A stretch of 19,878 nt of DNA from a virus (lineage: Duplodnaviria; Heunggongvirae; Uroviricota; Caudoviricetes): IMG/VR virus record IMGVR_UViG_2711768014_000002. One strand, given 5' to 3'. The translations under genes were made by a program, and so were the position numbers. The notes below the pieces were generated by a model. The model did no database searches and was not told the DNA's origin. It saw only the letters and a program-made list of their open reading frames with translations. Every line of letters begins with the position of its first letter. Position 1 is the first letter of the stretch. Below, one piece after another: positions 1 through 19,878 of this stretch.

Positions 1-3000
1 TCATACGCTATACCGTTAAAAATAATGGGCGGAATAATAATCTGGCGGTCAAAGTTATGATCATCGCTTATGGTGACTGTAACCGTCCCGTTTGGTGTTT
101 CCGTGTTACCCCACGTACCAGCCTGTTTCGGAAATGATTTGGATACAGCTTTAACGAAGTCACCTCTGACCTGAGTCGCCTCCAGCATGCCCTTAATCGT
201 ACAGTTTTCATTTACCGTGACATTGTTGAGCGTCCCGGCGTTCGCATTCACACTGCCACTGATATCCGCATTTTTAGCGGTCAGCTTTCCGTCCGGAGTC
301 AGGGAAAATGCCGATGGATTTCCACCGCTGGTAATGGTGGGGGCCGTCAGGCGTTTCAGGAACACGTCGTTCATGAATATCTGATCGCCCTGACCAACAA
401 ACATCGGTTTTGTGTTGCCATTCGCAGGATTAACCATCGCAATCCTGTCCGCCGCCAGCAGCACCTGACTCTGCATGCCGTCAGGGGTGTTCTCAATACC
501 GGCACCAATACCCGCGATATAAAGGCGTCCGTCCTGCATCTGCTGCAGCTTCACAGCCCACATGCTGTTCAGGTTATTATTTGTATCAACCTGAACCTTC
601 TGTATCTGCTGAATTGCCGCACTCTGGTCTTCCAGTTTCTTATTGACGGTCTGCGTGATTTCATTGCTGACATCCGTAATGGACGTCCTGATTTCAGCCA
701 GGTCAGGCGCAAGCTGACCGTTATCAATCTGCGTCCACAGCTCCTGAGCCAGATGGGTTTTCCCTATCTCGCCTTTGAAAAAATCCAGATAACCGGATGC
801 ATCATCACTCGGCTGACCAACAGCCTCCACGAATGCCGATTTGCCAACGGTGTTCACACTGCGGATATAAAAGTAATAATCATGGCCCGGTTTGATATTG
901 ATACTGGCGGCTATCCAGTACAGCGCCGTGCCAAGATAGCGTGCTGTGGTTTCAACCTGCCTGATATCCGCAATCCGCTTTTCCGAGAACCAGAACTCAA
1001 ACTGTACCGTCGGATCATAAACCGCAAGATGCGGCGTGGCGGTTATCTGAAAATAGCCCGGCGTCAGCTCAATCCGCGACAGCGCTGCCGGTGCGGCAAT
1101 CCGGAACGATACCGACGCCGGATCGCCCTGCTGCCCCCACGCATTTACTGCCCGGACTGTCAGCCTGTAGTTCCCCAGCGCCAGTTGTGTGAAGCGGTAA
1201 GTGGTTTCCGTCGTCCGGGCCGTGCTGACCAGNNNNNNNNNNNNNNNNNNNNNNNNNNNNNNNNNNNNNNNNNNNNNNNNNNNNNNNNNNNNNNNNNNNN
1301 NNNNNNNNNNNNNNNNNNNNNNNNNNNNNNNNNNNNNNNNNNNNNNNNNNNNNNNNNNNNNNNNNNNNNNNNNNNNNNNNNNNNNNNNNNNNNNNNNNNN
1401 NNNNNNNNNNNNNNNNNNNNNNNNNNNNNNNNNNNNNNNNNNNNNNNNNNNNNNNNNNNNNNNNNNNNNNNNNNNNNNNNNNNNNNNNNNNNNNNNNNNN
1501 NNNNNNNNNNNNNNNNNNNNNNNNNNNNNNNNNNNNNNNNNNNNNNNNNNNNNNNNNNNNNNNNNNNNNNNNNNNNNNNNNNNNNNNNNNNNNNNNNNNN
1601 NNNNNNNACCGTCAGGAACACGGCTCACTTTTACCTTCACGCCGTCGGTGACGGACTGGACCTCCACGCTGACCGGATTCCCCTGCCCGTCAACCAGGCT
1701 TATCAGCGTGGTGCCGGAGGATGGCAGCGTGATTTCACGGTCGAGCGTCAGCGTCCGGGTCTGGCTGTTCACCGCCAGCACGCGCCCGCCGGTGCGGATA
1801 CCGGCATAGTCATCATCGCAGATTTCAATGACATCGCCCGGTACATGACGAAGCCCTTCAGCACCCACGCTGAAATCCACGGTCTGCGTCTCCAGCAGTT
1901 CCGTTTTAATCAGCCACAGCCCGGCGCGGTGTGCCTGCCCCCGGCTGGTACAGCCAAAGGCATCCATCTTCGTGACGTTACGACCGTAACGGACAATGGC
2001 CTGCGTATCCTCCACAAGCTCTGTCGCCGTCTCCCAGCCGTTATCCGGGTCAATCCAGTTCACCTCAACGGCATTATGGCGGTCTTTCAGGGCGCTGAAA
2101 CTGTAGCGGAACGGCGCGCCATCATCCGGCATCACCACATTACTGCGGTTATAGGCCCACACCTTATCCGACTGTCGGTCCTGCACGAACGTCAGCGTCT
2201 GCCCGTTCCATACCGGCATACAGCGCATCGCCGAGCAGAAATCACTGAGCACATCCCACGCCTTGCGCTGTGTGGTCAGCCAGGCATTACAGGTGATGCG
2301 CGGCTCCGTGCTGCCAAAGCCGTCCGGCACCGACTGGTCACAGTACTGGCCGATGACATACAGCGCCCATTTATCCACATCTGCCGCACCAAGACGTTTC
2401 CCCATGCCATAGCGCGGATGGGTCAGCATATCCCACAGACACCAGGCCATGTTGTTGCTGTATGCCGGTTTTAACGTTCCGTCCCAGATACCGCTGTATT
2501 GCCGCGTCTGCGGATTATAGTTCGACGGCACCTGCAGAATGCGCCCGCGAAGATGATAATTACGGCTCACCTGCTGGCTGCCGAACTGCTCCGAATCCAC
2601 CTGTACGCCGACCAGTGCCGTGTTCGGGTAGCACTGTTTCACATCGATGATTTCGGTGTATGACGACCAGAGCGTTTTGTTCTGCAGCTGGTCTGTGGTG
2701 CTGTCCGGCGTCATTCTGCGCATCCGGATATTAAACGGGCGCGGCGGCAGGTTATCCACCACCACCGAGGCCAGATACTGCGAGGTGGTTTTGCCCTTAA
2801 TGGTGATGTCTTTTTCCGTCACCCAGCCACCGTTACGCTGTATCTGAACCAGCAGGCGAACTTCAGACGGATTCCTGTCTCCCTTTGAGGTGGTTTCCAC
2901 CAGTGCCTGTACACCGAAGGTAAAACGCAGTCGGTCAATGTTTGCCGACGTGATGGTCCGGGTGATCGGCGTGTCATATTTCACTTCCGTACCCAGCACC

Positions 3001-3263
3001 GTCTCGGAGCCGGAGGATTCAAACCCCTCCGGCGGTGACTGCTCCTGCTCACCTGCCCGGAACACCACCGTGACGCCGGAGATGTTGGTATTCCCCTCAT
3101 TGTCCAGCACCGGCGTACTGTTCAGCAGCACGCTTTTTAATCCATCCACCGGACCTTCAACCGGCCCTTCACTGATGGCATCGATCACACTCAGCAGCTG
3201 CGTGGACTTCAGGTTGTCCTTCGCTTCGCGCGGGGTATGCCCCTTACTGCTGCCTTTACCCAT
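1..3263 (-). CDS. J: Tail tip / host-specificity protein J (central tail fibre), 3'-partial
   Basis: Minus-strand ATG at 3263..3261. My translation begins [34 protein letters not shown], which I recognise as the lambda gpJ N-terminus. The frame is still open at the window edge (last residues ...[28 protein letters not shown]). It is interrupted only by the 375-nt N run (a multiple of 3). About 1087 codons are in the window; the rest, about 45 codons if the length equals the 1132 aa I recall for lambda J, lies outside. Absent from the supplied ORF track because it has no in-window stop. Confidence 0.93.
1233..1607. other. Run of 375 N (masked or unsequenced gap) inside J
   Basis: Directly visible. 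The length is a multiple of 3 and the J frame is continuous across it. It hides roughly J residues 553-677. Confidence 0.99.
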
Positions 3264-3323
3264 TCGTCATGCTCCATAAACGATAAAACCGCCCGGAGGC
3301 GATTTCACATAAAACATTTTGCA

Positions 3324-3995
3324 TCAGCGACCAATCACCACAACCTGACCACCGTCCCCTTCGTCTGCCGTGCTGATCTCCTGAGATACCACACGTGACC
3401 CCACGCGCATTTCACCATACAGAACAGGCATAACATTGCCCTGGGCAACCATGTTATCCAGTGAGGAGAAATAGGTGTTCTGCTTACCGTTATCCGTTGT
3501 CTGTGTGCGGGGAGTTCTGGCTTTCGGTGCCAGCATCTGAGCCACACCGCCGAGCACCATACTGGCACCGAGAGAAAACAGAATGCCGGTCATACCACCG
3601 GCACCAATGGCAGCCCCCCATGCTGCAAGGGTGGCTCCGGCGGTAAAGAATGATCCGGCAATGGCGGCTGCTCCCAGGACAATCTGGAATACACCACCTG
3701 ACTTGGCCCCGGCGACTCTGGGAACAATATGAATCACAGCGCCGTCAGGCAGAGCCTCATGTAACTGTGCCGTTAATCCGGACGTGCTAACATCCTGCCC
3801 GGCAATACGCACCTGATACCAGCCGTCGCTCAGCTTCTGACGAAACGCAGGGAGCTGTGTGGCCATCGCCCGGATGGCTTCGGCACCCGTTTTCACACGA
3901 AGGTCGATGCGGCGGCCAAATCGTTGTAAATCCCCGTAAAGGCAGATGCGTGCCATGCCCGGTGACGCCAGAGGGAGTGTGTGCGTCGCTGCCAT
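3324..3995 (-). CDS. I: Tail assembly protein I
   Basis: 223-aa minus ORF (MAATHTLPLASPGMARICLYGDLQRFGRRIDL...), the length I recall for lambda gpI. Sits between K and J; the 5' end overlaps the K 3' end. Hydrophobic Gly/Ala-rich C-terminal half. Confidence 0.92.
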   Translation of the reverse strand: MAATHTLPLASPGMARICLYGDLQRFGRRIDLRVKTGAEAIRAMATQLPAFRQKLSDGWYQVRIAGQDVSTSGLTAQLHEALPDGAVIHIVPRVAGAKSGGVFQIVLGAAAIAGSFFTAGATLAAWGAAIGAGGMTGILFSLGASMVLGGVAQMLAPKARTPRTQTTDNGKQNTYFSSLDNMVAQGNVMPVLYGEMRVGSRVVSQEISTADEGDGGQVVVIGR

Positions 3996-4636
3996 TTGTC
4001 GGTATACCTCTCTCGTTTGCTCAGTTGTTCAGGAATATGGTGCAGCAGCTCGCCGTCACCACAGTAAATGGCGGCATGATTCGGCACCGATGAACCAAAA
4101 CAGCACAGCAGCACATCGCCCGGCTGCGCCGCTGACAACGGCACCTGATACAGCCCTGTGGCCTCCAGATTATCCAGATAGAGATTCTGACCGTGACGCC
4201 ACCAGTCATCCTCACGATGAAAATCCGGCATCTCAATCCCCGCCAGATGGTAAGCATCCCGGAACAGCGTGTAACAGTCCGTCACCCCGTGCTCAAAGCG
4301 CCGCCCGGTAAGATGTGGCACACAGCGGAACTTGTGAATCGCCCCCCGGCAGACCAGCCACCACGGCAAATCACTCTGCACCTGCAGCCGCCGGTCGGCC
4401 TCACTCAGCCAGGGCAGACCACCGGGGTGGCTGTGGACCAGTGCCACAATCTCACCCTGCATCTCTGCCTGCAGCCAGTCTTCCGGCGACATACGGAAAT
4501 ACGCCTCCGGCTCACCGGAGATATTCACGCAGGGGAAATATCTTTCCCCCTCCGGCGTTCTTACCACGAAGCCGCACGACTCCGCTGGAGCACATCGCCG
4601 GGCGTGCGCCAGAATCGCTGATTCTGTCTCTGTCAT
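3893..4636 (-). CDS. K: Tail tip assembly protein K (MPN/JAMM + NlpC/P60 two-domain protein)
   Basis: 247-aa minus ORF starting MTETESAILAHARRCAPAESCGFVV. Contains the JAMM motif HSHPGGLPWLSEAD (H-x-H-x7-S-x2-D) and a downstream Cys/His region typical of NlpC/P60 (GVTDCYTLF...NHAAIY). An alternative internal ATG at 4492 gives 199 aa and has a GGAGG upstream, but would truncate the MPN domain. The 3' end overlaps I by 103 nt in another frame. Confidence 0.85.
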   Translation of the reverse strand: MTETESAILAHARRCAPAESCGFVVRTPEGERYFPCVNISGEPEAYFRMSPEDWLQAEMQGEIVALVHSHPGGLPWLSEADRRLQVQSDLPWWLVCRGAIHKFRCVPHLTGRRFEHGVTDCYTLFRDAYHLAGIEMPDFHREDDWWRHGQNLYLDNLEATGLYQVPLSAAQPGDVLLCCFGSSVPNHAAIYCGDGELLHHIPEQLSKRERYTDKWQRRTHSLWRHRAWHASAFTGIYNDLAAASTFV

Positions 4637-4641
4637 GGGAT

Positions 4642-5293
4642 TTACTGCGAAAGTTTGTTAATGGAAAGGAAGCCGCCAAAGTTGCCGACGTTATTGCGAA
4701 ACTTACAGCCACTCAGGCATTTGCTGCATTTATCCTTCGTGATGTCGGACGTTGGCTGGTCATATTCATCCGCGACCGCCGGACCGTGATAACCGCACTC
4801 ATCGCCGCGATAGGTCCAGGTGCAGGTGTTGGCCAGCATGATACGTCCCGGAAAAACAGCGCCATCTGTTTCCGTCGGNNNNNNNNNNNNNNNNNNNNNN
4901 NNNNNNNNNNNNNNNNNNNNNNNNNNNNNNNNNNNNNNNNNNNNNNNNNNNNNNNNNNNNNNNNNNNNNNNNNNNNNNNNNNNNNNNNNNNNNNNNNNNN
5001 NNNNNNNNNNNNNNNNNNNNNNNNNNNNNNNNNNNNNNNNNNNNNNNNNNNNNNNNNNNNNNNNNNNNNNNNNNNNNNNNNNNNNNNNNNNNNNNNNNNN
5101 NNNNNNNNNNNNNNNNNNNNNNNNNNNNCTGTCGCCCCTGCCAGGTGACCGGCTCACCTTTTTCGTTCTGCTCATTACAGAAAAAATAACGTTCTCCACC
5201 GACCTCTGTCAGATCGATTTCCCAGAGCACCACGCTGGCCGACTGCTCCGCACGGGTGCATTCATTCAGTGTTTCCTGCCGGATATCCTGCAT
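4642..5293 (-). CDS. L: Minor tail protein L (interrupted by N run)
   Basis: N-terminal 55 codons (5293..5129, MQDIRQETLNECTRAEQSASVVLWEIDLTEVGGERYFFCNEQNEKGEPVTWQGRQ) and C-terminal 78 codons plus stop (4878..4642, PTETDGAVFPGRIMLANTCTWTYRGDECGY...FLSINKLSQ) flank the 250-nt N run. Both pieces match what I recall of lambda gpL (232 aa). L start overlaps M stop (ATGA). Confidence 0.9.
4879..5128. other. Run of 250 N (gap) inside L
   Basis: Directly visible. 250 is not a multiple of 3, so the two L segments are out of frame as written. It is also about 47 nt shorter than the 297 nt needed for a 232-aa L. Consistent with an estimated-length scaffold gap or mask. Confidence 0.99.
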
Positions 5294-5622
5294 CAGTTCA
5301 CCACCTGTTCAAACTCTGCGCTGAACTCAACACGCAGCATACTGACCCGCGACGACCATTTTGCGCAGGTCACCTTTATCTGCCGCCACTCATAAGGCGG
5401 CGTCCACAGAAAGGCTTTCCAGCCCCCGTGCTCTTCCAGAAACGACTCCAGTACCATGGCCTCCTCACGGGGGACAGAAAGCGTCACGCTGTACGTTTTC
5501 AGGTTGGCATTCAGCCCGGCAGGCGCTCGCTGGGAATAGCCATCACCAAAGCGCACCTTTCTTACAGAAGGGGCCGAAGCCACATCCATACCGGGTTTCA
5601 CTTTCCAGCGGAAGGTTTTCAT
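5293..5622 (-). CDS. M: Minor tail protein M
   Basis: 109-aa minus ORF (MKTFRWKVKPGMDVASAPSVRKVRFGDGYSQRAPAGLNANLKTY...), the length and position of lambda gpM. 4-nt overlap with H stop, 1-nt overlap with L start. Confidence 0.93.
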   Translation of the reverse strand: MKTFRWKVKPGMDVASAPSVRKVRFGDGYSQRAPAGLNANLKTYSVTLSVPREEAMVLESFLEEHGGWKAFLWTPPYEWRQIKVTCAKWSSRVSMLRVEFSAEFEQVVN

Positions 5623-8180
5623 CGTCCACCTCCGGAGAACAGGCCACCATCACGCATCTGTGTCTGAATTTCATCACGGGCACCCTTGCGGGCCATGTCA
5701 TACACGGCCTTCATCATCTGTGGACCTGGCAGACCATTCGTACCGTCGTTCTGAATCACCACGTGATTGTTCTGATTAAAATTAATGCCTTCAGCCCGCC
5801 GCATCTGCGCCGGACTTCCGGCACCGCCCACATAACCACCTTCCGCATAGCCGCGCATCAGCCGGTAGAGATTCCCCACGCCAATCCGGCTGGTTGCCTC
5901 CTTCGTGAAGACAAATTCACCACGGTGAACAATCCCCGCTGGCTCATATTTGCCGCCGGTTCCCGTAAATCCCCCGGTTGCAAAATGGAATTTCACCGCA
6001 GCGGCCTGAATGGCTGTACCACCTGACGCGGATGCGCCGCCACCAACAGCCCCGCCAATGGCGCTGCCGATACTCCCGACAATCCCCACCATTGCCTGCT
6101 TAAGCAGAATTTCTGTCATCATGGACAGCACGGAGCGGGTGAAGCTGCGCCAGTTCTGTTCACTGCCGGTCAGCATCGCCGCCATATTCTGTGCAATACC
6201 ATCAAAGGTCTGCGTGGCTGCACTTTTAACCTGTGACATACTGTCCGTGGCGCTCTCTTCCCACTCACTCCAGCCGGACTTCAGGCCTGCCATCCAGCTC
6301 CCGCGAAGCTGGTCTTCAGCCGCCCAGGTCTTTTTCTGCTCTGACATGACGTTATTCAGCGCCAGAGGATTATCGCCATACTGTTCCTTCAGGCGCTGTT
6401 CCGTGGCTTCCCGCGCTGCCTGCCGGTCAGTCAGCCCCCGGTTTTTCGCATCAATGGCTGCCCGTTTTGCCCGTTGCTGCTGTGCGAATTTATCCGCCTG
6501 CTGCGCCAGCGCATTCAGGTGCTCCTGATACGTAACCTTGTCACCAAGTGCAGCCAGCTGGCGTTTGTACTCCAGCGTCTCGTCTTTATGCGCCAGCAGG
6601 GATTTCTCCTGTGCGGACAGCTGGCGACGTTGTGCCGCCTCCTCCAGTACCGCGAACTGACTTTCTGCCTTCCACAAATCCCGGCGCTGCTGGCTGATTT
6701 TCTCATTCGCTCCGGCATGCTTCTCCAGCGTCCGGAGTTCTGCCTGAAGCGTCAGCAGGGCCGCATGAGCACTGTCTTCCTGACGATCGCCCGCATACAC
6801 CTTCACGCCGGACTGTTTCGGCTTTTTCAGCGTCGCTTCATAATCCTTTTTCGCCGCCGCCATCAGCGTGTTGTAATCTGCCTGCAGGATTTTTCCGTCT
6901 TTCAGTGCCTTGTTCAGTTCTTCCTGACGGGCGGTATATTTCTCCAGCGGCGTCTGCAGCCGTTCGTAAGCCTTCTGCGCCTCTTCGGTATATTTCAGCC
7001 GTGACGCTTCGGTATCGCTCTGCTGCTGCGCATTTTTGTCCTGTTGACGCTGTTGATCTACCCTCTTTTGGGCTGCATCCCGCTCCAGGCGTTTTTTTTC
7101 ACGATCATCCCAGTAACGCGCCCGTGCTTCATCGTTAACGAAATAATCATCCTTGCGCAGATTCCAGATGTCGTCTGCTTTCTTAAACGCAGCCTCTGCC
7201 TTAATCAGCATCTCCTGCGCGGTATCAGGACGACCAATATCCAGCACCGCATCCCACATGGATTTGAATGCACGTGCAGTCCTGTCTGCCCAGGTCTCCA
7301 GCGTGCCCATGTTCTCTTTCAGGCGGCGGGTCTGGTCATCAAACCCTTTCGTTGCGGCCTCGTTCGCCGCCTGCAATGCCCCGGCTTCATCGCCGGAACG
7401 CTGCAACTGAGCAACATACGCAATCTGCTCCGCCGTCACGTTATGGAACTGGCGTGCCATCGCCGTCAGCCCCGACGTCGGGTCTGTGGTCAGCTTCCCG
7501 AAGGCTTCAGCGACCTTGTCCACCTCCACGCCGGATGCATAGGAGAAACGCGCCACACTCTGGCTGATGGACGCAATCTGAGCCTCACCGCTTACCCCCG
7601 CCTTAACCAGTGCGCTGAGTGACTCGCTGGTCTGGTTAAACGTCAGCCCTGCCGCCTGCCCGGCTCTGGACAGGACCAGCATACGATCTGCCGTCAGTCC
7701 CGCCTGATTACCGGAAAGGACCAGCGTTTTGTTGAAATCGGACAGGGTTGAGTTGCCCTGATACCAGGCATACGCCAGCGCACCGGTCGCCACCGCCAGC
7801 GAGGTGGCCCCCACCATCGGCAGGGTGATCGCGCCGGCAAGCCCCCTGAACATGGGGATCATCCCGCCGAAGGAGTCCTTAACCTGACCACCCTGTTGCA
7901 GCAGGATCAGCCAGGGATTCTGCCCCCCTGCAAGCTGCGTGGCCACGTCGGTGAACTGTGCAGGCAGCATACGCATGGCGGCTTTATACTGCCCGACGGA
8001 AATCCCCGCTTTCTGTGCAGCCAGCGCCTGTCGGCTCAGCGACTGTTCAACGACTGCCGCTGTTTTTTTCGCATCACTTTCCGTACCGGAAAAATGACGC
8101 CTGACTCTGGCCATCTGCTCGTCAAATCTGGCCGCATCCAGACTCAAATCAACGACCAGATCGCCTACCGGTTCAGCCAT
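5619..8180 (-). CDS. H: Tail tape measure protein H
   Basis: 853-aa minus ORF, the length I recall for lambda gpH. Long Ala/Gln/Glu/Lys-rich predicted coiled-coil centre, hydrophobic Gly-rich segment near the C-terminus. Immediately follows G/G-T as in all lambda-type tail modules. Confidence 0.95.
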   Translation of the reverse strand: MAEPVGDLVVDLSLDAARFDEQMARVRRHFSGTESDAKKTAAVVEQSLSRQALAAQKAGISVGQYKAAMRMLPAQFTDVATQLAGGQNPWLILLQQGGQVKDSFGGMIPMFRGLAGAITLPMVGATSLAVATGALAYAWYQGNSTLSDFNKTLVLSGNQAGLTADRMLVLSRAGQAAGLTFNQTSESLSALVKAGVSGEAQIASISQSVARFSYASGVEVDKVAEAFGKLTTDPTSGLTAMARQFHNVTAEQIAYVAQLQRSGDEAGALQAANEAATKGFDDQTRRLKENMGTLETWADRTARAFKSMWDAVLDIGRPDTAQEMLIKAEAAFKKADDIWNLRKDDYFVNDEARARYWDDREKKRLERDAAQKRVDQQRQQDKNAQQQSDTEASRLKYTEEAQKAYERLQTPLEKYTARQEELNKALKDGKILQADYNTLMAAAKKDYEATLKKPKQSGVKVYAGDRQEDSAHAALLTLQAELRTLEKHAGANEKISQQRRDLWKAESQFAVLEEAAQRRQLSAQEKSLLAHKDETLEYKRQLAALGDKVTYQEHLNALAQQADKFAQQQRAKRAAIDAKNRGLTDRQAAREATEQRLKEQYGDNPLALNNVMSEQKKTWAAEDQLRGSWMAGLKSGWSEWEESATDSMSQVKSAATQTFDGIAQNMAAMLTGSEQNWRSFTRSVLSMMTEILLKQAMVGIVGSIGSAIGGAVGGGASASGGTAIQAAAVKFHFATGGFTGTGGKYEPAGIVHRGEFVFTKEATSRIGVGNLYRLMRGYAEGGYVGGAGSPAQMRRAEGINFNQNNHVVIQNDGTNGLPGPQMMKAVYDMARKGARDEIQTQMRDGGLFSGGGR

Positions 8181-9011
8181 ACCGGACTCCTCCTGCGATC
8201 CCTTCTGATACTGTCATCAGCATTACGTCATCCTCCGTCATGTCCGCCACATCCGGGGAAGCGGGGATAACTTCATTCCCGTCCGGGCCAAAGCGGACAC
8301 CTCCGGCAAGCCCTGCCGCTTTCTGCATCAGCACATCATCTTCAGGCTCTTCGTCAGCCTCGCGCCGGTTCAGCAGACTGAAATCCAGCGGATGCATCTC
8401 CGGATCGCTGAAAAACAGGCTGAGCACGGTGTACGTCAGCCCGGAAAAGTGCATATCCAGCAGAACATCATGAAAATAATGGGTACTGTAAAAGCGGTGC
8501 CAGTCGGCATACTCCGTGGATGACATCCCGGCAAGCATGGCGCGCCAGTCGGGTCGCCCCATCTCACGCGCCAGTTTCAGGGCAAAACTCAGCTCACCGT
8601 CGAACACTTTCCCGCAGAAACAGGCTCTGCAGGCCCGGCGTCCTCTGCCTGTTCAGGAGCATCATTCACCACAAACTCATACATACCGGACAGCCGGTAC
8701 ACCACGTTTTCAGCATGAGAAATTGCCTCTGTGGGCCAGGTGGTAAGCACTTCCTGCTCAATCTGTTTAACGGCTTCATTCATGGACGGCATCTGCGTCT
8801 TCTTCGGATGGTTATGCCACAGGGACATCGCAACCACAAAAGCGCCGGTTCTGATGGCGTCTTCCACAGTAAACTTCCGGTTGCTGTCTGACTCCGCCTG
8901 TTCTGCCTGCCGTTTCATCAGGTCGAGATGCTCAATACGCTGCAGGGCTGACAGTTCAGAAAGCGTGACGGTCACACCGTTATGTTCAAATGATTCGGTT
9001 TTCAGGAACAT
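8173..9011 (-). CDS. T: Tail assembly chaperone G-T fusion, made by programmed -1 ribosomal frameshift
   Basis: The T frame (8173..8607, 144 codons) has no credible start of its own; the ORF track begins it at a GTG that is the last G of the slippery site. It lies in the -1 frame relative to G, beginning exactly at the GGGAAAG heptamer (minus strand, 8613..8607). T stop overlaps H start. Confidence 0.88.
8589..9011 (-). CDS. G: Tail assembly chaperone G
   Basis: 140-aa minus ORF (MFLKTESFEHNGVTVTLSELSALQRIEHL...), the length of lambda gpG. Slippery heptamer G GGA AAG sits at codons 134-135. Confidence 0.94.
   Translation of the reverse strand: MFLKTESFEHNGVTVTLSELSALQRIEHLDLMKRQAEQAESDSNRKFTVEDAIRTGAFVVAMSLWHNHPKKTQMPSMNEAVKQIEQEVLTTWPTEAISHAENVVYRLSGMYEFVVNDAPEQAEDAGPAEPVSAGKCSTVS
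8607..8613 (-). other. -1 frameshift slippery heptamer G GGA AAG (G to G-T recoding site)
   Basis: Plus-strand ctttccc at 8607..8613 is GGGAAAG on the minus strand. GGA is codon 134 of G ((9011-8612)/3 = 133 full codons before it). Confidence 0.85.
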
Positions 9012-9026
9012 CGCTGACTCTCCGGA

Positions 9027-9767
9027 TTAACTGGCGGTGACGTTGATTTCTGCAACCGCAGCAAACTCACCATTACCAGATACGACCGGAATGTTGACCT
9101 TGCCTGCAGCAACACCTTTCACGGTGATGGTCATACCACTGACCGACACGGTGGCTTTTGTTTTATCCGCAGACACCGCACGGAAGCTCTTGTCGGTTGC
9201 GCCATCCGGCTGGAATGCCACGGTCAGCGTGGTGCTCTGCCCTTTCACTACGGAAGCACTGGCGGGTGTCACCGTCATGCCGGTCGTCGCCGTCACCGTG
9301 CTGCGATCTTCTGCCATCGACGGACGTCCCACATTGGTGACCTTCACCGTGCGGGTAATCACCTCCTTCGCCGTCACCGCCTTACCGATACTGCTGACCC
9401 AGCCACGGAACACATCGACCGTGCCGTTCGGGAAGCGGATTTTATAGGCACGGGTATCACCTTCATTAAACCACGCCAGCAGCGCCTGCTGCCCCTGCTC
9501 TCCGGGCATCCACGCCAGCGTGAAGCTGGTATCTCCGGCAGATTTCTGCCCCTGCCCGGTCGCAGTCCAGTCTGCATCTTCATCATCGAGATAGCTGTCG
9601 TCATAGGACTCAGCGGTCAGTTCGCCGGGCGTCAGGTCTTTAACTTTTGCCAGACGCGACCAGTCAACGTCTGAAAGCGGGTTCGCATAAGGGTCACCGC
9701 TCCCCTTATAAACCCACAGGGTGGTCCCGGCACCTTTCACCGGCATTGTAGGATTTGGTACAGGCAT
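9027..9767 (-). CDS. V: Major tail tube protein V (with C-terminal Ig-like domain)
   Basis: Minus ORF. The supplied 256-aa ORF has a 10-codon upstream extension; the real start is the internal ATG at 9767 giving [31 protein letters not shown]... (246 aa, as in lambda gpV). The C-terminal ~90 aa ([25 protein letters not shown]...) have a Big_2-like Ig pattern. Confidence 0.94.
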
Positions 9768-9774
9768 AGCGTCC

Positions 9775-10170
9775 TCACATTTCATAGATAATGACATAAG
9801 TCAGATCGGCTGAACTCCACAGGCCCGCATCATCGTCGCGCCGGTAGTCATAGCCGCTGGCCACCATACTGGTGATCAAATCTGACAGTGCCGGGATATC
9901 GCTCATCACAGGATAAATCCGGGACTCCATCCACGAATCCAGCTCTGAATCCGGCACCTGAGCAGGCAGGAAAACTTCAATATGCAGCTCCGCCTGCCAG
10001 GTATCGCTGTCCAGCTCTTCGCCCGTGTATTCAGCGCCGGTGAGATAAACGGCAATTGCCGGAAAATCTTCCTCATCAAAAACAGCGGGGCGACCATCAA
10101 AAAGCGTCGCCCCGGTGTCATGCTTCTCCAGTGCATCCAGTACGGCTGCACGGAGTTCAGTATGTTTCAT
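9775..10170 (-). CDS. U: Tail terminator protein U
   Basis: 131-aa minus ORF ([54 protein letters not shown]...), the length and position of lambda gpU. 4-nt overlap with Z. Confidence 0.93.
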
Positions 10171-10745
10171 CGCTTTATTACCATTCTCAGTTGATGCTGC
10201 AGCGCATAGCCCAGCTCTTTCGGAAGACGTTCACGCCGTATCCGTTCAATATTCTGTTTAAACGCCGTGGTCAGCGGCACCGCCATCGGGATTTTCACCA
10301 CATCAATGGGGTAACGGTTTTTCCCGGCCACACGCTGCATAACATGCCACCGGCCGTTTTTCAGTTGCTGAATAAACGCGCCGGGAATACGACGGTTACC
10401 CACCACAAGCACGCTGCCGCCACCTTTCAGGGATGAACGCTGCCCCTTTTTATGACGCCTGCGGCGGGACAGGACAACCCGCGCATTACCCAGCTTGATT
10501 ACGGGCAAATCCCCCCGGTTAACTTTGATTCTGGCCTGCGGATTTTTGACCGTGGCCCTTTTCAGCCTGGCCCTTTCCTTTACCAGTTTCCGGCGTACCT
10601 TTGTCTCACGGGCAACCTGTGACGCAGACTGCGATATCGCGGATGAAGCAACGCGGTTAATGGCCATTGCGGCGGCACCGGGCACCGCCGTTTTGCTGAT
10701 ACGGCTGAGGTTTTCAACGGCCTGCTCAAGACCTTTTATGGCCAT
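10167..10745 (-). CDS. Z: Tail completion protein Z
   Basis: 192-aa minus ORF (MAIKGLEQAVENLSRISKTAVPGAAAMAINRVASS...), the length and position of lambda gpZ. Confidence 0.92.
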   Translation of the reverse strand: MAIKGLEQAVENLSRISKTAVPGAAAMAINRVASSAISQSASQVARETKVRRKLVKERARLKRATVKNPQARIKVNRGDLPVIKLGNARVVLSRRRRHKKGQRSSLKGGGSVLVVGNRRIPGAFIQQLKNGRWHVMQRVAGKNRYPIDVVKIPMAVPLTTAFKQNIERIRRERLPKELGYALQHQLRMVIKR

Positions 10746-10756
10746 ACATCCCCCTT

Positions 10757-11110
10757 TCAGCGGCGACGGTTAACGGCAGGCGGTACGCCCCGTCCAAGCC
10801 AGAGATGACAACTTCCGCCATCATCCGGCGAAACCCGATCTACCCAGAAATTTTCCTCACCGATGGTCAGCGTGTCTCCACGCCGCAGCTGCCGCACCTC
10901 ATCAGTCCGGACAAACAGGGACGGGCTGGAGCCTTCAACGCGCACGCCCTGTCCGGCATAGCTGATATTTTCAGGGTCATCAAAAACACCACGTATCACC
11001 GCACCTGACTGCTCACCGGATGTCATGGTGGCTGACGTTCCCATGTACCCGCGTATCGTTTCATCGGCGCGGGCAATGGCAGCATCGAACAGGTTATCGA
11101 AATCAGCCAC
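10757..11110 (-). CDS. FII: Head-tail joining protein FII
   Basis: 117-aa minus ORF (MADFDNLFDAAIARADETIRGYMGTSATMTSGEQSG...), the length and position of lambda gpFII. Confidence 0.92.
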   Translation of the reverse strand: MADFDNLFDAAIARADETIRGYMGTSATMTSGEQSGAVIRGVFDDPENISYAGQGVRVEGSSPSLFVRTDEVRQLRRGDTLTIGEENFWVDRVSPDDGGSCHLWLGRGVPPAVNRRR

Positions 11111-11121
11111 AGCGCCTCCCG

Positions 11122-11520
11122 TTATTGCATTCTGGCCAGGCCGCGCTCTGTCATTTCGGCTGCCACACCGGCAGAGACACGAAACGCCGTTCCCGGCAGC
11201 ACAAATGCCACAGGTTTATCCCGCGTGGCGTGAAGTGCATCAGTATGCAGCGTCACCAGTGCCACGACCGTGACCAGTTCAGCCGTATCCTGAATCACGG
11301 TATCCGGCTGCGCTGATACCACCTCATTTTCATGCCCGGTCAGCACATTTTCCCGGCTGAGAGGGGTGTCCTGACCGGCAGTTTCATCCGTGTCATCAAG
11401 CTCTTCTTCCAGCTCTGCCACACGAAGCGCCAGTTCTTCTTTCGTTCCCGTCAAACTGACATCGCGGTTCAATTGCTCACCCAGCTCCTGAAGACGGGCA
11501 ATCAGTTCATCTTTCGTCAT
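11122..11520 (-). CDS. FI: DNA-packaging / head assembly protein FI
   Basis: Minus ORF. The true start is the internal ATG at 11520 (MTKDELIARLQELGEQLNRDVSLTGTKEELALRVAELEEELDD..., 132 aa), preceded by GGAGG (revcomp of 11526..11530). The 145-aa ORF in the track is an upstream extension. Confidence 0.9.
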   Translation of the reverse strand: MTKDELIARLQELGEQLNRDVSLTGTKEELALRVAELEEELDDTDETAGQDTPLSRENVLTGHENEVVSAQPDTVIQDTAELVTVVALVTLHTDALHATRDKPVAFVLPGTAFRVSAGVAAEMTERGLARMQ

Positions 11521-11541
11521 GAACTCCTCCACAGAGAGAAA

Positions 11542-11559
11542 ATGGCCCCGAAGGGCCAT
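11542..11559 (-). other. Stable RNA stem-loop (7-bp stem, UUCG tetraloop) immediately 3' of E
   Basis: Minus-strand sequence AUGGCCC-UUCG-GGGCCAU, followed by UUUCUCUCU and the FI ribosome-binding site. Lies between the E stop (11562..11564) and the FI start. Confidence 0.5.
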
Positions 11560-11561
11560 GA

Positions 11562-12587
11562 TTACGCCAGTTGAACGGACACGAACTCATCAGGATCAGC
11601 CAGCAGCATCAGCGGTGCTGACTGAATCATGGTGAACTCACGCGCCGGATCGCCGGTGGTCACCCAGTTTTTCGGGTAACGGGCAGAAGCGTTAATGCCT
11701 TCGCGCTGTGCGTCCGCATCCTGAATGCAGCCATAGGTGCGCAGACCGCGAGCCTGAGTGTTCCCCAGCACCATCGTGTTGTCCGGCAGGAAGTTCTTTT
11801 TGACGCCGTTTTCCACGTACTGTCCGGAATACACGACGATGGCCACATCGCCATACATTCCCTTATAGGACACCGCTTTGCCCAGGTCTTTTACCGCTGT
11901 CTCCAGCTCGGAATGAGAGCCGCGACGGGTATCCAGCTTCTCCTTGACGGCTTTGAAGGAACGGAACAGCGCCCAGCCTTTCGGGTCAAACACGATGATA
12001 TTCACCACACCGCTGGCGTTCAGCGCGTAGGCTTCGATATCGTCGGTCGGGTCATACGTGGACTTGTCACGCTTGCTCCACTCCGTGACGCCGGACTGTG
12101 TGATGTTGTTCGCCGCACTGCGGCCCATATCCACCTCAACCGGATCGAAGGCTTCACCGGTCATGGTGTATTTGCCCTTGAGCACGGCAGAAACTGCCTG
12201 CATCTCTTCGACCTGAGCAATGGCCAGCTCTTCGTCACGCATGTTCTGCATGATGATGCGACGGCGGCGGTAAGCCGGGTCCGCCAGATTCTGCGGATCT
12301 TCATCCGGCAGGCGACGCAGGGTCATCTGCGGATTCACCTCATGCTTGGGTTTGACATATCCCGGCGTAAATTCAGAGGTGGAGCCGCCACGGGAACGGA
12401 TAACCTCACCGGAAACAATCGGCGAAACGTACAGCGCCATGTTTACCAGTCCCGGAATTTGTGAGAGATAGACTTTCTCCGTAGTGAAGGGATAGCTCTC
12501 ACGGAAAAAGAGACGCAGAAACAGCGGATCAAACTTAAATTTCTGCTCATTTGCCGCCAGCAGCTGGGCGGTTGTGTACATCGACAT
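11562..12587 (-). CDS. E: Major capsid protein E
   Basis: Minus ORF. True start at 12587 (MSMYTTAQLLAANEQKFKFDPLFLRLFFRESYPFTTEKVYLSQIPGLVNMALYVSPIVSGEV..., 341 aa, as in lambda gpE). The 350-aa track ORF adds 9 upstream codons. Confidence 0.96.
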   Translation of the reverse strand: MSMYTTAQLLAANEQKFKFDPLFLRLFFRESYPFTTEKVYLSQIPGLVNMALYVSPIVSGEVIRSRGGSTSEFTPGYVKPKHEVNPQMTLRRLPDEDPQNLADPAYRRRRIIMQNMRDEELAIAQVEEMQAVSAVLKGKYTMTGEAFDPVEVDMGRSAANNITQSGVTEWSKRDKSTYDPTDDIEAYALNASGVVNIIVFDPKGWALFRSFKAVKEKLDTRRGSHSELETAVKDLGKAVSYKGMYGDVAIVVYSGQYVENGVKKNFLPDNTMVLGNTQARGLRTYGCIQDADAQREGINASARYPKNWVTTGDPAREFTMIQSAPLMLLADPDEFVSVQLA

Positions 12588-12642
12588 AAAAAAATCCCGT
12601 AAAAAAAGCCACACAGGCGGCCTTTAGTGATGAAGGGTAAAG

Positions 12643-12975
12643 TTAAACGATGCTGATTGCCGTTCCGGCAAACACGGTCCGTTTTTTCGTCTCGTCGCTG
12701 GCAGCCTCCGGCCAGAGCACATCCTCATAACGGAACGTGCCGGACTTGTAGAACGTCAGTGTGGTGCTGGTCTGGTCAGCAGCAACCGCAAGAATGCCAA
12801 CGGCAGCACCGTCGGTGGTGCCATCCCACGCAACCAGCTTACGGGTGGAGGTGTCCAGCATCAGCGGGGTCATTGCAGGCGCTTTCGCACTCAATCCGCC
12901 GGGCGCGGTTGCGGTATGAGCCGGGTCACTATTGCCCAGCGGCTGGTAATGGGTAAAGGTTTCTTTGCTCGTCAT
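12643..12975 (-). CDS. D: Capsid decoration protein D
   Basis: Minus ORF. Start at the second ATG ([43 protein letters not shown]..., 110 aa, as in lambda gpD). Confidence 0.95.
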
Positions 12976-12984
12976 AAACATCCC

Positions 12985-13590
12985 TTACACTGGTGTGTTC
13001 AGCAAATCGTTAACGGCATCAGATGCCGGGTTACCTGCAGCCAGCGGTGCCGGTGCCCCCTGCATCAGACGATCCAGCGCAGTGTCACTGCGCGTCTGTG
13101 CACTCTGTGGTGCTGCGGCCAGAATACGGCGGGCCGTTTCCACGGTCATACCGGGGGTTTCGGCCAGCACGCGTGCCTGTTCTTCGCGTCCGTGAGCCTC
13201 CTCACAGTTGAGGATCCCCATAATGCGACTGTTTTCTGCCGCAACCGCTGCGGTGATCTGCGCGTTCACGTCCGGCTGCGCCGCGCTGGCGTTCTCGCCC
13301 TCCGTCGCTTGCACCACGCCAGTAACGTCAGCCTGCGAAGCAGTGGCTGAAACAGTTGTTGATTGAGTCTCTTTGGTCATTCGCCCTCCTGAGAGACGGG
13401 ATTTACGTGCATCCAGTGCATCACGCATGACGGTGATCGCATCGGTACTGTTAACAAGTTCATCAGCCAGTCCGGCATCAATGGCCTCCTGACCGCTGTA
13501 CACTGCAGCCTCGGTATCCAGCACAGCCTGCACGGACAGGCCGGTATATGCCGACACCTTCTGTGCAAACATCCGGCGGGTTGCATCCAT
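12985..13590 (-). CDS. Nu3: Scaffolding protein Nu3 (nested in-frame within the 3' third of C)
   Basis: Internal in-frame ATG at 13590 (C residue 239, ...SRMDATRRMFAQKV...) shares the C stop and gives 201 aa, matching the nested Nu3 arrangement of lambda. No independent sequence evidence beyond position and length. Confidence 0.7.
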   Translation of the reverse strand: MDATRRMFAQKVSAYTGLSVQAVLDTEAAVYSGQEAIDAGLADELVNSTDAITVMRDALDARKSRLSGGRMTKETQSTTVSATASQADVTGVVQATEGENASAAQPDVNAQITAAVAAENSRIMGILNCEEAHGREEQARVLAETPGMTVETARRILAAAPQSAQTRSDTALDRLMQGAPAPLAAGNPASDAVNDLLNTPV

Positions 13591-14284
13591 CCGGGACTGC
13601 AATGTTTCCCGGACATCATCCGGTAGATGGCTGTAGGGGTTGCCATCCACCTTATGGCTGCCGCTGTAAATCAGCGTGATTTCCACGCCCTGTTTCTCCA
13701 GTGCAGCGCCGTAATTACTGTGAGCCATCATGACGCCGATGGAGCCTGTCCGGGCGGTCTGCGTGACCAGACGCCGGGAGGCGGCACTGGCAAGCAGCTG
13801 ACCTGCGCTGCAGTTCATGTCATTGGCCAGCGCCCATACCGGCTTTATGTCACGCACACGGGCGATGATGTCAGCGCAGTCAAATGCTCCCGCCACCATT
13901 CCGCCCGGTGTGTCCATATCGAGCAGAATGCCGTCCACCATCGGGTCGCTGGCAGCCTGTTGCAGACGGGCGATAATGCCGTTGTAACCGGTCATCCCCG
14001 AGTACGGCTGCAGCGCCCGCGTCCGGCTGACCAGCGTGCCGGACACCGGCAGCACGGCGATGCCGTTCATTACCTGATAACTGCGGGCCTGTCGTGGTCC
14101 GTCATCATCACCGGATAACGCCAGCGCCGCGGGTGCCTCTCCGGCAGTCAGGCTGTCGCCGGATACTGCATCCGTCAGGCAGCTGATCCCAAGCTGGCCT
14201 GCAAGCGCACAAAAGAAAACCCGCGCATAGGCGGGTTCAAGCATCAGCGGCTCATTAAAAGCCATGCTGGCAATATGCGGGAGA

Positions 14285-14304
<20 letters not shown>
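12985..14304 (-). CDS. C: Head maturation protease / minor capsid protein C (S49/ClpP-like fold)
   Basis: Minus ORF. The supplied 484-aa ORF is an upstream extension; the product matching lambda gpC starts at a GTG (VTAELRNLPHIASMAFNEPLMLEPAYARVFF..., 439 aa). That start overlaps the B 3' end by 20 nt, the arrangement I recall for lambda. Confidence 0.9.
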
Positions 14305-17985
<3,681 letters not shown>

Positions 17986-18011
<26 letters not shown>

Positions 18012-18531
18012 TCAGCAACCCCGGTATCAGTTCATCCAGCGCGGCTGCTTTGTTCATGGCTTTGATGATATCCCGTTTCAGGAAATCAACATGTCGGTTT
18101 TCCAGTTCCGGAAAACGCCGCTGCACCGACAGGGGGATCCCGTCGAGAATACTGGCAATTTCACCTGCGATCCGCGACAGCACGAAAGTACAGAATGCGG
18201 TTTCCACCACTTCAGCGGAGTCTCTGGCATTTTTCAGCTCCTGTGCGTCGGCCTGCGCACGCGTAAGTCGATGGCGTTCGTACTCAATAGTCCCTGGCTG
18301 GAGATCTGTCTCGCTGGCCTGCCGCAGTTCTTCAACTTCCCGGCGCAGCTTTTCGTTCTCAATTTCAGCATCCCTTTCGGCATACCATCTTATAACGGCG
18401 GCAGAGTCATAAAGCACCTCATTACCCTTGCCACCGCCTCGCAGAACGGGCATTCCCTGTTCCTGCCAGTTCTGAATGGTACGGATACTCGCACCGAAAA
18501 TGTCAGCCAGCTGCTTTTTGTTGACTTCCAT
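17986..18531 (-). CDS. Nu1: Terminase small subunit Nu1
   Basis: 181-aa minus ORF (MEVNKKQLADIFGASIRTIQNWQEQGMPVLRGGGKGNEVLYDSAAV...), which I recognise as lambda gpNu1 with a few substitutions. Start is 189 nt from the predicted cosN end. Confidence 0.97.
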
Positions 18532-18555
18532 TGTTCATTCCACGGACAAAAACAG

Positions 18556-18668
18556 AGAAAGGAAACGACAGAGGCCAAAAAGCCCGTTTTCAGCACCTGT
18601 CGTTTCCTTTCTTTTCAGGGGGTGTTTTAAATAAAAACATTAGGTTACGGCGAAGAAGAACGGAAACG
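18556..18668 (-). promoter_or_regulatory. cosB: Nu1-binding sites R1, R2, R3 with intervening IHF-site (I1) region
   Basis: Read on the minus strand from cosN toward Nu1: R3 CGTTTCCGTTCTTCTT (18653..18668), an AT-rich I1-like segment (about 18620..18650), R2 AAAGGAAACGACAG (18597..18610) and R1 CTGTCGTTTCCTTTCTC (about 18556..18572). R1 and R2 form a 14-bp perfect inverted repeat with a 24-bp spacer. These match the cosB elements as I recall them from lambda. Confidence 0.75.
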
Positions 18669-18708
18669 CCTTAAACCGGAAAATTGTCATAAATAGCGAA
18701 AACCCGCG

Positions 18709-18720
18709 CGCCTTCCGCCC
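18709..18720 (-). other. cosN (predicted 12-nt cohesive-end segment), variant sequence
   Basis: Revcomp of 18697..18731 is GACAGGTTACG-GGGCGGAAGGCG-CGCGGGTTTTCG. The flanks are identical to lambda cos (right end ...GATCCGACAGGTTACG, left end ...CGCGGGTTTTCGCTATTTATGA...), but the 12-mer reads GGGCGGAAGGCG rather than the canonical GGGCGGCGACCT (from memory). Confidence 0.7.
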
Positions 18721-18756
18721 CGTAACCTGTCGGATCGCCGGAAAGGACCCGCAAAA

Positions 18757-18771
18757 TGATAATAATTATCA
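18757..18771. promoter_or_regulatory. Perfect Fur-type 7-1-7 palindrome TGATAAT-A-ATTATCA
   Basis: Directly visible at 18757..18771 (full 17-bp palindrome ATGATAATAATTATCAT at 18756..18772). It matches the minimal Fur recognition unit TGATAATnATTATCA. It lies about 40 bp from cosN on the side away from Nu1 (roughly where cosQ is expected) and about 150 bp upstream of the YbcW-like ORF. Function unproven. Confidence 0.35.
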
Positions 18772-18919
18772 TCTACATGTCACAACGTGCATCTACGCCA
18801 TCAAACCACGTCAAATAATCAATTATGACGCAGGTATCGTATTAATTGATCTGCATCAACTTAACGTAAAAACAACTTCAGACAATACAAATCAGCGACA
18901 CTGAATACAGGGCAACCTC

Positions 18920-19153
18920 ATGTCAACGAAGAACAGAACCCGCAGAACAACAACCCGCAACATCCGCTTTCCTAACCAAATGATTGAACAAATTAACATC
19001 GCTCTTGTTCAAAAAGGGTCCGGGAATTTCTCAGCCTGGGTCATTGAAGCCTGCCGCCGGAGACTGTGCTCAGAAAAAAGAGTTTCGCCTGAAGCAAACA
19101 AAGAAAAGAGTGACATTACTGAATTGCTCAGAAAACAGGTTAGACCAGATTGA
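18920..19153 (+). CDS. ybcW: Small ribbon-helix-helix-like protein (YbcW-like, function unknown)
   Basis: 77-aa plus ORF, AT-rich. TRNIRFPNQMIEQINIALVQKGSGNFSAWVIEACRRRL fits a beta-strand / helix / G-x-S turn / helix RHH (Arc/CopG-like) pattern. The N-terminal ~45 aa match what I recall of E. coli YbcW (DLP12 prophage) and the equivalent lambda right-end ORF; the C-terminal tail differs. Recognition is from memory, not a search. Confidence 0.6.
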   Translation: MSTKNRTRRTTTRNIRFPNQMIEQINIALVQKGSGNFSAWVIEACRRRLCSEKRVSPEANKEKSDITELLRKQVRPD

Positions 19154-19210
19154 AGCAATTTAGATAATCGTGCAGACTACGCCCCCTCATATCACATGGA
19201 AGGTACTACA

Positions 19211-19621
19211 ATGGCTCAGGTTGCCATTTTTAAACAAATATTCGATAAAGTGCGAAATAATTTAAACTATCACTGGTTTTATTCTGAACTAAAACGTCAC
19301 AATGTCTCACATTACATTTACTATTTAGCCACAGAGAATATTCATCTTGTTCTTGAAAACGATAATACGGTTTTAATAAAAGGACAGGGTAAGGTTGTAA
19401 ATGTAAGATTTTCAAAAAATAAATGCCTTATAGAAGCCACCTTAAAAGGATTCAAATCAGGAGAGTTATCATTTTACGAATACAGGAAAAATCTTGCTAC
19501 AGCAGGGGTTTTCAGATGGATTACAAATATCCACGAAAACAAAAGGTATTACTATACCTTTGATAATTCATTACTCTTTACTGAGAACATACAGAACACT
19601 ACACAAATATTTCCGCACTAA
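19211..19621 (+). CDS. ybcV: DUF1398-family protein (YbcV-like, function unknown)
   Basis: Plus ORF, very AT-rich. I prefer the second ATG at 19211 ([65 protein letters not shown]..., 136 aa) because GGAAGG precedes it by ~7 nt; the track ORF starts 5 codons earlier at 19196. Resembles E. coli YbcV and the lambda right-end ORF as I recall them (roughly three-quarters identical by eye). Confidence 0.6.
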
Positions 19622-19878
19622 ATCATAACGTCCGGTTTCTTCCGTGCCAGAACCGGACTCGCTGGCATGATGAAATATGTGTACCCGGTAACCCCGGTGT
19701 GCATCGTTTTTGATTATTCCCGCACACTCGCGCAGAAGGAGTTCCCCGTCGGGCTACGGTCTCTGTTAATACGGGAATACGGCGACGATTGGATTTGCCC
19801 CTATATTTCCAGACATCTGTTATCACTTAACCCATTACAAGCCCGCTGCCGCAGATATTCCCGTGGCGAGCGATAACC

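Follow-up and report, generated by a model that had tools for sequence, protein, structure and literature searches.

A DUF3950 (YlcI/YnfO) gene and a DUF1398 (YdfO/YbcV) gene next to cos in a lambda-like phage or prophage

Layout of the locus and its two coding genes

The window analyzed here, a stretch of 19,878 nucleotides from a virus of the Caudoviricetes (IMG/VR record IMGVR_UViG_2711768014_000002), belongs to a lambda-like prophage or phage. The minus strand carries the genes for Nu1 and the large terminase subunit, and two ORFs of 77 and 136 amino acids (aa), ORF1 and ORF2, are found on the plus strand beyond cos (Table 1), confirming the divergence from the packaging genes that the preliminary description had noted. 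The gap between the two ORFs is exactly 57 or 42 nt, as claimed there, when ORF2 is started at 19211 or 19196, respectively. The GC content was 0.548 over positions 1-18531, the structural and terminase part, 0.407 in the spacer between cos and ORF1, 0.472 in the core and 0.380 in the tail of ORF1, and 0.314 in ORF2, and it returned to 0.521 past ORF2. The reported AT-richness of the gene pair was thus borne out, as was a sharp drop in composition across cos (from 0.55 to 0.31) where the two plus-strand ORFs appear.

Table 1. Features at the cos-proximal locus (window positions unless another record is named)
Feature	Position	Strand	Remark
Large terminase subunit (terminase A)	16086-18011	minus	
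Nu1	17986-18531	minus	
cosN, 12-nt cohesive-end segment	18709-18720		lambda right end aligns from 18721
cosQ-side spacer, cos to ORF1	18721-18919		95-97% identity with lambda, 434 and DLP12
AT-rich palindrome GATAATAATTATC	18758-18773		overlapped by the minus-strand sigma-70-like site
Sigma-70-like site GTGACA-16-TATCAT (10/12)	18783-18756	minus	directed toward cos and Nu1
13-nt inverted repeat	18818-18830/18838-18850		between the minus-strand promoter-like site and ORF1
ORF1, ynfO-type gene (DUF3950 / YlcI-YnfO)	18920-19153	plus	77 aa
ORF1 conserved core, codons 1-54	18920-19082	plus	
ORF1 variable tail	19083-19153	plus	23 aa
PdhR-box core GGTTAGACC, inside AAcaGGTtagACCAgaT	19138-19146	plus	kept upstream of all 5 DUF1398 alleles compared
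Promoter-like TAGACC-16-GATAAT before ORF2	19141-19168	plus	-35 overlaps the PdhR box
Shine-Dalgarno GGAAGG	19198-19203	plus	7 nt upstream of ATG 19211; invariant in 5 alleles
ORF2, ydfO/ybcV-type gene (DUF1398)	19211-19621	plus	136 aa; alternative start 19196 gives 141 aa
Conserved joint segment	19680-19790		110 nt, ~90% identity with lambda, 434 and BP-4795; closes the cargo slot on its far side
Tandem DUF3950 genes of a satellite	L099 4590-5363 (E. coli CP027459.1 3714563-3724925)		also in L100, L101 and L102

ORF1 matched the Pfam model DUF3950 (PF13132) at 2e-20 with 72.8 bits (cut-off 25) and the NCBIfam model YlcI/YnfO (NF041551) with 35.2 bits (cut-off 30), and it also matched phrog_949. 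Near-identical copies in many E. coli genomes carry the RefSeq label 'YlcI/YnfO family protein'. The family is small and restricted to Enterobacterales and their mobile elements; a collection of 1.84 billion representatives held 108 clusters at 50% identity, many of which were error-ridden reads of lambda control DNA. The same start methionine and a basic N-terminal arm were found in 27/27 aligned DUF3950 proteins, and the invariant core reads K-x-I-R-F-P-h-x-L-I-E-x-I ... S-x-N-F-S-A-W-V-[IL]-[ED]-A-C-x-x-K-L. Since all 27 proteins share this Met, the annotation of the DUF3950 ORF of phage Kati (4381-4554) as a 57-aa protein from Met21 is probably too short. The lambda ORF (NC_001416/J02459 48139-48303) is left unannotated in the reference records. 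The ORF1 tail is unconserved across the family and unlike the tails in lambda, 434, and BP-4795.

ORF2 matched Pfam DUF1398 (PF07166) at 3e-43 with 147 bits (cut-off 22), which confirms its earlier placement in a family with no assigned function, and the NMR structure of E. coli YdfO (PDB 2hh8) from end to end at 1.4e-69. RefSeq labels near-identical copies in many E. coli genomes 'DUF1398 domain-containing protein'. The 136-aa start is preferred because its GGAAGG is invariant in the five alleles and RefSeq uses the same start; the N-terminal extension of lambdap78 is out of frame in the window. The protein is predicted to be soluble and lacks any hydrophobic segment (maximum KD19 0.39). Two labels given to DUF1398 were rejected, 'head protein' (phrog_413) and 'putative envelope protein'. 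The protein is soluble, as seen from the NMR structure, nonessential, and encoded antisense to the late operon, and it has no hydrophobic segment. lambdap78 was nonessential by CRISPRi and in earlier deletions (PMC10695390). ydfO was scored 'essential' in TraDIS only (PMC5821084), a result with which the Keio collection disagrees, and we do not regard it as an essential gene. Among defence models, PADLOC returned only Csx23 for ORF2 at an E value of 0.023 and no match for ORF1, and Pfam gave HEPN_AbiA_CTD for ORF2 at 15.8 bits (cut-off 27).

A contig scan found distant relatives of DUF1398 in Escherichia, Shigella, and Citrobacter only, plus lambda control-DNA contamination in unrelated assemblies. 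Contigs of 3.5-48 kb identical to the lambda right end were present in many assemblies of unrelated organisms, for example Pseudomonas, Kitasatospora, Cohnella, Flavobacterium, and Arcanobacterium 'plasmids'. They are most likely leftover sequencing-control lambda DNA, and error-ridden variants from this source also swell the protein clusters of DUF3950 and DUF1398.

Substitution rates were calculated by the Nei-Gojobori method. The dN/dS ratio of the DUF3950 core was 0.10 at a dS of 0.81 (against phage BP-4795). For DUF1398, comparison with the alleles of lambda, Qin, and DLP12 gave 0.22-0.35, and comparison with ycgX, a distant paralogue, gave 0.25. The suggestion that the pair is under selection is upheld by these values of 0.1-0.35 over both ORFs, indicating that both are genuine coding genes under purifying selection.

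On the Nu1 strand, the cosN segment of the window reads GGGCGGAAGGCG, while that of lambda reads GGGCGGCGACCT. The change falls in the right half, and the flanks on both sides are lambda-like. A regex comparison of the flanks found this variant in 7 fetched loci, E. coli strain 582 being among them, and the canonical form in 67. The variant may alter cos compatibility. In the spacer before ORF1, the minus-strand sigma-70-like site, the palindrome, and the inverted repeat are candidate divergent control elements. The consensus scan gave no plus-strand sigma-70 promoter for ORF1 at its threshold, and no operator for the ORF1 product was identified. In the interval 18500-19878, Rfam gave no known RNA element; its hairpin matches at 18550-18617, in the stretch from Nu1 to cosN, all stayed below threshold.

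Mosaic structure and the putative DUF1398 promoter

The locus is a mosaic. The spacer together with DUF3950 codons 1-54 (18721-19082) shares 95-97% identity with lambda, 434, and DLP12, positions 19083-19136 are of the Qin type only, and positions 19137-19790 correspond to the lambda DUF1398 module at 83% identity. The ORF1 tail belongs to this variable joint. Phages 434 and BP-4795 have only the DUF3950 core and the segment 19680-19790 in common with the window. DUF1398 is therefore cargo in a slot that these two conserved segments bracket. The far joint lies upstream of bor in lambda-type phages, and the HK629 record annotates a consensus-like promoter there.

Gene order differs accordingly among relatives. 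It is ylcI-ybcW-ybcV-borD in DLP12, YlcI-like ORF, lambdap79, lambdap78, and bor in lambda, cosQ-DUF3950-bor with no DUF1398 in 434, and Rz, DUF3950, HNH-TerS-TerL in BP-4795 and 705R7. When deposited phage genomes were searched by tblastn, DUF3950 was found in 155 records and DUF1398 in 43. Among complete E. coli genomes searched by blastn, DUF1398 was present in 5376/5426 (99%) and the DUF3950 core in 4184/5426 (77%).

Each gene also occurs by itself. Divergent DUF3950 genes were found in Proteus PICI-like satellites, in an ICE-like island of Klebsiella, and in an island of Salmonella, where fimbrial genes flank one side and type I R-M genes the other, with no DUF1398 nearby in any of the three; a published list of accessory genes in Enterobacter cf-PICIs also includes YlcI/YnfO (PMC13612085). 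In turn, the DUF1398 gene ycgX of K-12 and its relatives in Escherichia, Shigella, and Citrobacter have no DUF3950 within ~3 kb. A lambdoid E. coli-like fragment (L137, JAGZPX010000007.1) carries ybcW and DUF1398 behind a DUF1441-type small terminase and lacks DUF3950. This contig is binned as a Veillonella parvula MAG and is probably mis-binned.

The pair had been described as conserved next to cos in lambda-type genomes and E. coli cryptic prophages. Its recurrence in lambda, DLP12, and Qin was verified. Conservation next to cos holds for DUF3950, which is constant there, but not for the pair, as DUF1398 is optional and the two genes are split in lambda and DLP12. On this comparative evidence, the two genes behave as separate evolutionary units, and ORF2 has the marks of a moron: insertion between modules, variable presence (absent from 434 and BP-4795), and atypical composition.

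The upstream region of DUF1398 is itself conserved. A GGT-N3-ACC box precedes DUF1398 in 5/5 alleles, both where the ORF1 tail lies upstream and where ybcW does, and GATAAT is also found in lambda-type DUF1398 alleles. In K-12, PdhR sites were mapped by genomic SELEX between ynfO and ydfO of Qin and in the ybcV/ybcW spacer of DLP12, and ybcV mRNA was down 10-fold in a pdhR mutant (PMC7660256). In our alignment, the PdhR box of the window coincides with both SELEX-mapped sites. As the putative ORF2 promoter carries this box, the host pyruvate-sensing regulator would control ORF2. Strong induction of ydfO by ionic-liquid stress has also been reported in K-12 (PMC4077768). For the K-12 homologues, the literature reports measured mRNAs of ybcV and ydfO and an overlapping ybcW-ylcI transcript. 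No intrinsic terminator was found after ORF2 (past 19621). By analogy with K-12, DUF1398 is best seen as a cargo gene regulated separately, apparently via PdhR.

A regulator-effector unit of a nontoxic kind, in which the ORF1 protein would act specifically on the DUF1398 promoter, alone or together with PdhR, was also considered. DUF3950 lies upstream on the same strand in every DUF1398-carrying phage record examined, so that a regulatory link is possible, and the conserved DUF1398 promoter region likewise favours such a unit. However, DUF3950 is far commoner than DUF1398 in the phage records and stays in place without it, DUF1398 exists without DUF3950, and no repeat was found that the ORF2 promoter has in common with the region upstream of ORF1. 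We consider this arrangement improbable.

Predicted fold of the DUF3950 protein and its neighbours

A clear ribbon-helix-helix (RHH) signature had been claimed for ORF1. AF2 with an MSA predicted for the ORF1 monomer an extended segment at residues 1-18, helices at 19-32 and 37-55 joined by a G33-S-G-N36 turn, and a third, C-terminal helix at residues 60-73 (pLDDT 68.7), while the prediction from the single sequence was uninformative (pLDDT 54.7). The predicted order of a strand, helix A, a G-x-S/T/N turn, and helix B within about 45 residues is that of the RHH topology, and the RHH-type motif is invariant or near-invariant among 27 DUF3950 members. By hhalign, the strand and helix A of DUF3950 were placed in register with P22 Arc (NIRFP versus NLRWP) at a probability of 6%, and the probability against CopG was 0.5%. 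The fold-search lists for ORF1 consisted mostly of RHH proteins, the nearest structural neighbours being mostly RHH antitoxins (ParD, MazE, RelB, KacA, and TacA), and no single match reached significance. None of 18 DUF3950 members matched an RHH Pfam model at E <= 10, and a profile search with DUF3950 found no RHH protein in the PDB. The claimed signature thus stands as regards motif and predicted topology but is accompanied by no RHH Pfam or significant fold match. We judge it likely that ORF1 and its family have an RHH fold of the Arc/Mnt-like type.

Such a fold raises the question of a type II toxin-antitoxin-like pair, a layout that the preliminary description had called typical while noting no positive evidence for it. 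The C-terminal helix of the RHH antitoxin would neutralize a DUF1398 toxin, and the antitoxin would repress the operon. The predicted RHH N-terminal domain followed by the helix at residues 60-73, the dominance of RHH antitoxins among the nearest structural neighbours, the order of a smaller and then a larger gene on one strand, and the TraDIS-only 'essential' score of ydfO are in line with such a pair. The arrangement of the genes is not: with a 57-nt gap between them they do not form a tight operon, ORF2 has its own promoter-like site and conserved PdhR box, and in lambda and DLP12 ybcW on the other strand splits the pair. The 23-aa ORF1 tail differs in lambda, 434, and BP-4795. Nor is the would-be toxin always accompanied, as DUF1398 paralogues occur with no DUF3950 within 3 kb and ~1190 more E. 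coli genomes contain DUF1398 than contain the DUF3950 core. In published work, overexpression of YdfO or YbcV did not kill cells: YdfO could be produced for NMR (2hh8) and its overexpression is cited as raising oxidative-stress resistance, and overexpression of the ASKA ybcV clone changes glycogen content. Neither PADLOC nor Pfam placed ORF2 in a known toxin or defence family. The toxin-antitoxin idea is highly unlikely; it is not supported and can be set aside.

Apparent natural DUF3950-DUF1398 fusions (P0130 and P0134) were also rejected. ORF1 and ORF2 are in one frame, separated by a single TGA and then 13 sense codons before ATG 19196, and the contig DNA of the supposed fusions has this TGA, making them an artefact of gene calling with TGA read as Trp. 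P0134 comprises 761 member sequences, from short metagenome contigs.

The placement of DUF3950 raises a different question, that of a link to packaging. In such a case the RHH protein would bind DNA close to cos or to where the packaging operon begins, and it would either silence stray terminase transcription in the lysogen or modulate cos use, with DUF1398 as unrelated cargo. DUF3950 always stands as the final gene ahead of the packaging module, in divergent orientation, and does so with unrelated small terminases, those of the Nu1 type (lambda, 434, and the window) and of the HNH-TerS-TerL (Terminase_2) type (BP-4795 and 705R7). The minus-strand promoter-like site is directed at cos and Nu1. 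In PICI-like satellites of E. coli that are embedded in the late genes of a prophage, two DUF3950 genes stand in tandem next to int, and one of the products (P0332, 120 aa, 43 index blocks) is a chimera that joins DUF3950 to the N-terminal DNA-binding domain of a TerS (Terminase_2). This domain shares 64% identity with the TerS of the helper prophage and 53% with that of the satellite itself. The chimera is possibly a packaging-interference or redirection factor, and no description of its type was found in the literature searched. Rpp, the packaging redirector of E. coli PICIs, was considered as a DUF3950 relative and rejected, being an unrelated winged-HTH protein that resembles Nu1.

Several points weigh against a packaging role. 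The DUF3950 gene is antisense to the late transcript, members of the family also occur in islands without packaging genes, small cos fragments suffice for lambda packaging, and the position of DUF3950 could merely mark a recombination joint. The chimera and the placement hint that DUF3950 is connected with packaging-site DNA, and a recombination joint with domain shuffling would account for them equally well. A packaging-linked RHH protein is accordingly an unlikely reading of the locus. There is a similarly small chance that DUF3950 is an Arc-like DNA-binding module that guards or tunes the cos/terminase end of the prophage and that helper-embedded PICI satellites recruited, fused to a copy of the TerS DNA-binding domain of the helper, to compete for or redirect recognition of the helper's packaging site.

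Interpretation and comparison with known systems

The explanation that we find most probable is that of two independent accessory genes, an Arc-like ynfO/ylcI anchor and a PdhR-controlled DUF1398 moron, whose spacing results from a mosaic joint. Both would be accessory genes of a lambdoid prophage, located on the strand opposite to the late operon in the variable slot that separates the lysis cassette from cos. DUF3950 would be the conserved anchor at the cos-proximal end of this slot, and its product most likely a small dimeric Arc/Mnt-like RHH repressor or autoregulator in the lysogen. DUF1398 would be optional AT-rich cargo with its own PdhR-box promoter, switched by PdhR and stress signals and dispensable for lytic growth, and its product may be a soluble cytoplasmic modulator of host physiology. 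The close spacing of ynfO and ydfO in the Qin type would be due to a mosaic joint without the ybcW segment of lambda rather than to functional coupling. The expression evidence for this explanation is drawn from the cryptic prophages of K-12.

Both genes and both families are already known and annotated, one structure has been solved, and lambda carries both. DUF3950 and DUF1398 are among the commonest E. coli prophage genes, and they have no assigned function. The present analysis refines this picture modestly through the probable RHH assignment of DUF3950 and by rejecting the toxin-antitoxin model, and it adds the view of DUF3950 as the constant element of the cos-proximal joint and of DUF1398 as separately regulated cargo. 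This result narrows the range of worthwhile experiments and overturns nothing.

The closest known counterpart is the ynfO (b4533)/ydfO (b1549) pair of the K-12 Qin prophage, which has the same order, strand, and 57-nt gap and is likewise divergent from a Nu1 homologue, nohA. YnfO (77 aa) is 96-97% identical to ORF1 and YdfO (136 aa) ~75% identical to ORF2, with 89% DNA identity over 18600-19659. The two differ in the DUF1398 allele (dS 0.67), in the cosN variant of the window, and in the truncation of the Qin prophage. Lambda and DLP12 also carry both families on the same strand beside cos (DUF3950 core 94.5% and DUF1398 76% identical), with the same PdhR box before DUF1398. In these, however, the two genes are about 660 nt apart, separated by a 613-nt segment with the opposite-strand ybcW/lambdap79, the DUF3950 protein is 64 aa long with another tail, and bor follows downstream.

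P22 Arc and Mnt resemble ORF1 in small size, a basic N-terminal arm, the strand motif N-x-R-aromatic-P (NIRFP in ORF1, NLRWP in Arc), and a gene that lies within the late region and is read against it. The corresponding motif of Mnt is NFRMP. ORF1 differs from them in having no significant sequence or profile match, no filing under an RHH Pfam model, and no known operator. With RHH antitoxins, ORF1 shares a predicted RHH domain and C-terminal helix, but no cognate toxin family follows it, it is not part of a tight operon, and its tail is not conserved. Compared with the lambdoid morons bor and lom, ORF2 has no detected terminator and no established host phenotype. It resembles them in being AT-rich, placed between modules opposite to the late genes, variably present in close relatives, and equipped with its own promoter-like site, and lytic growth is possible without a gene of the ORF2 type (lambdap78).
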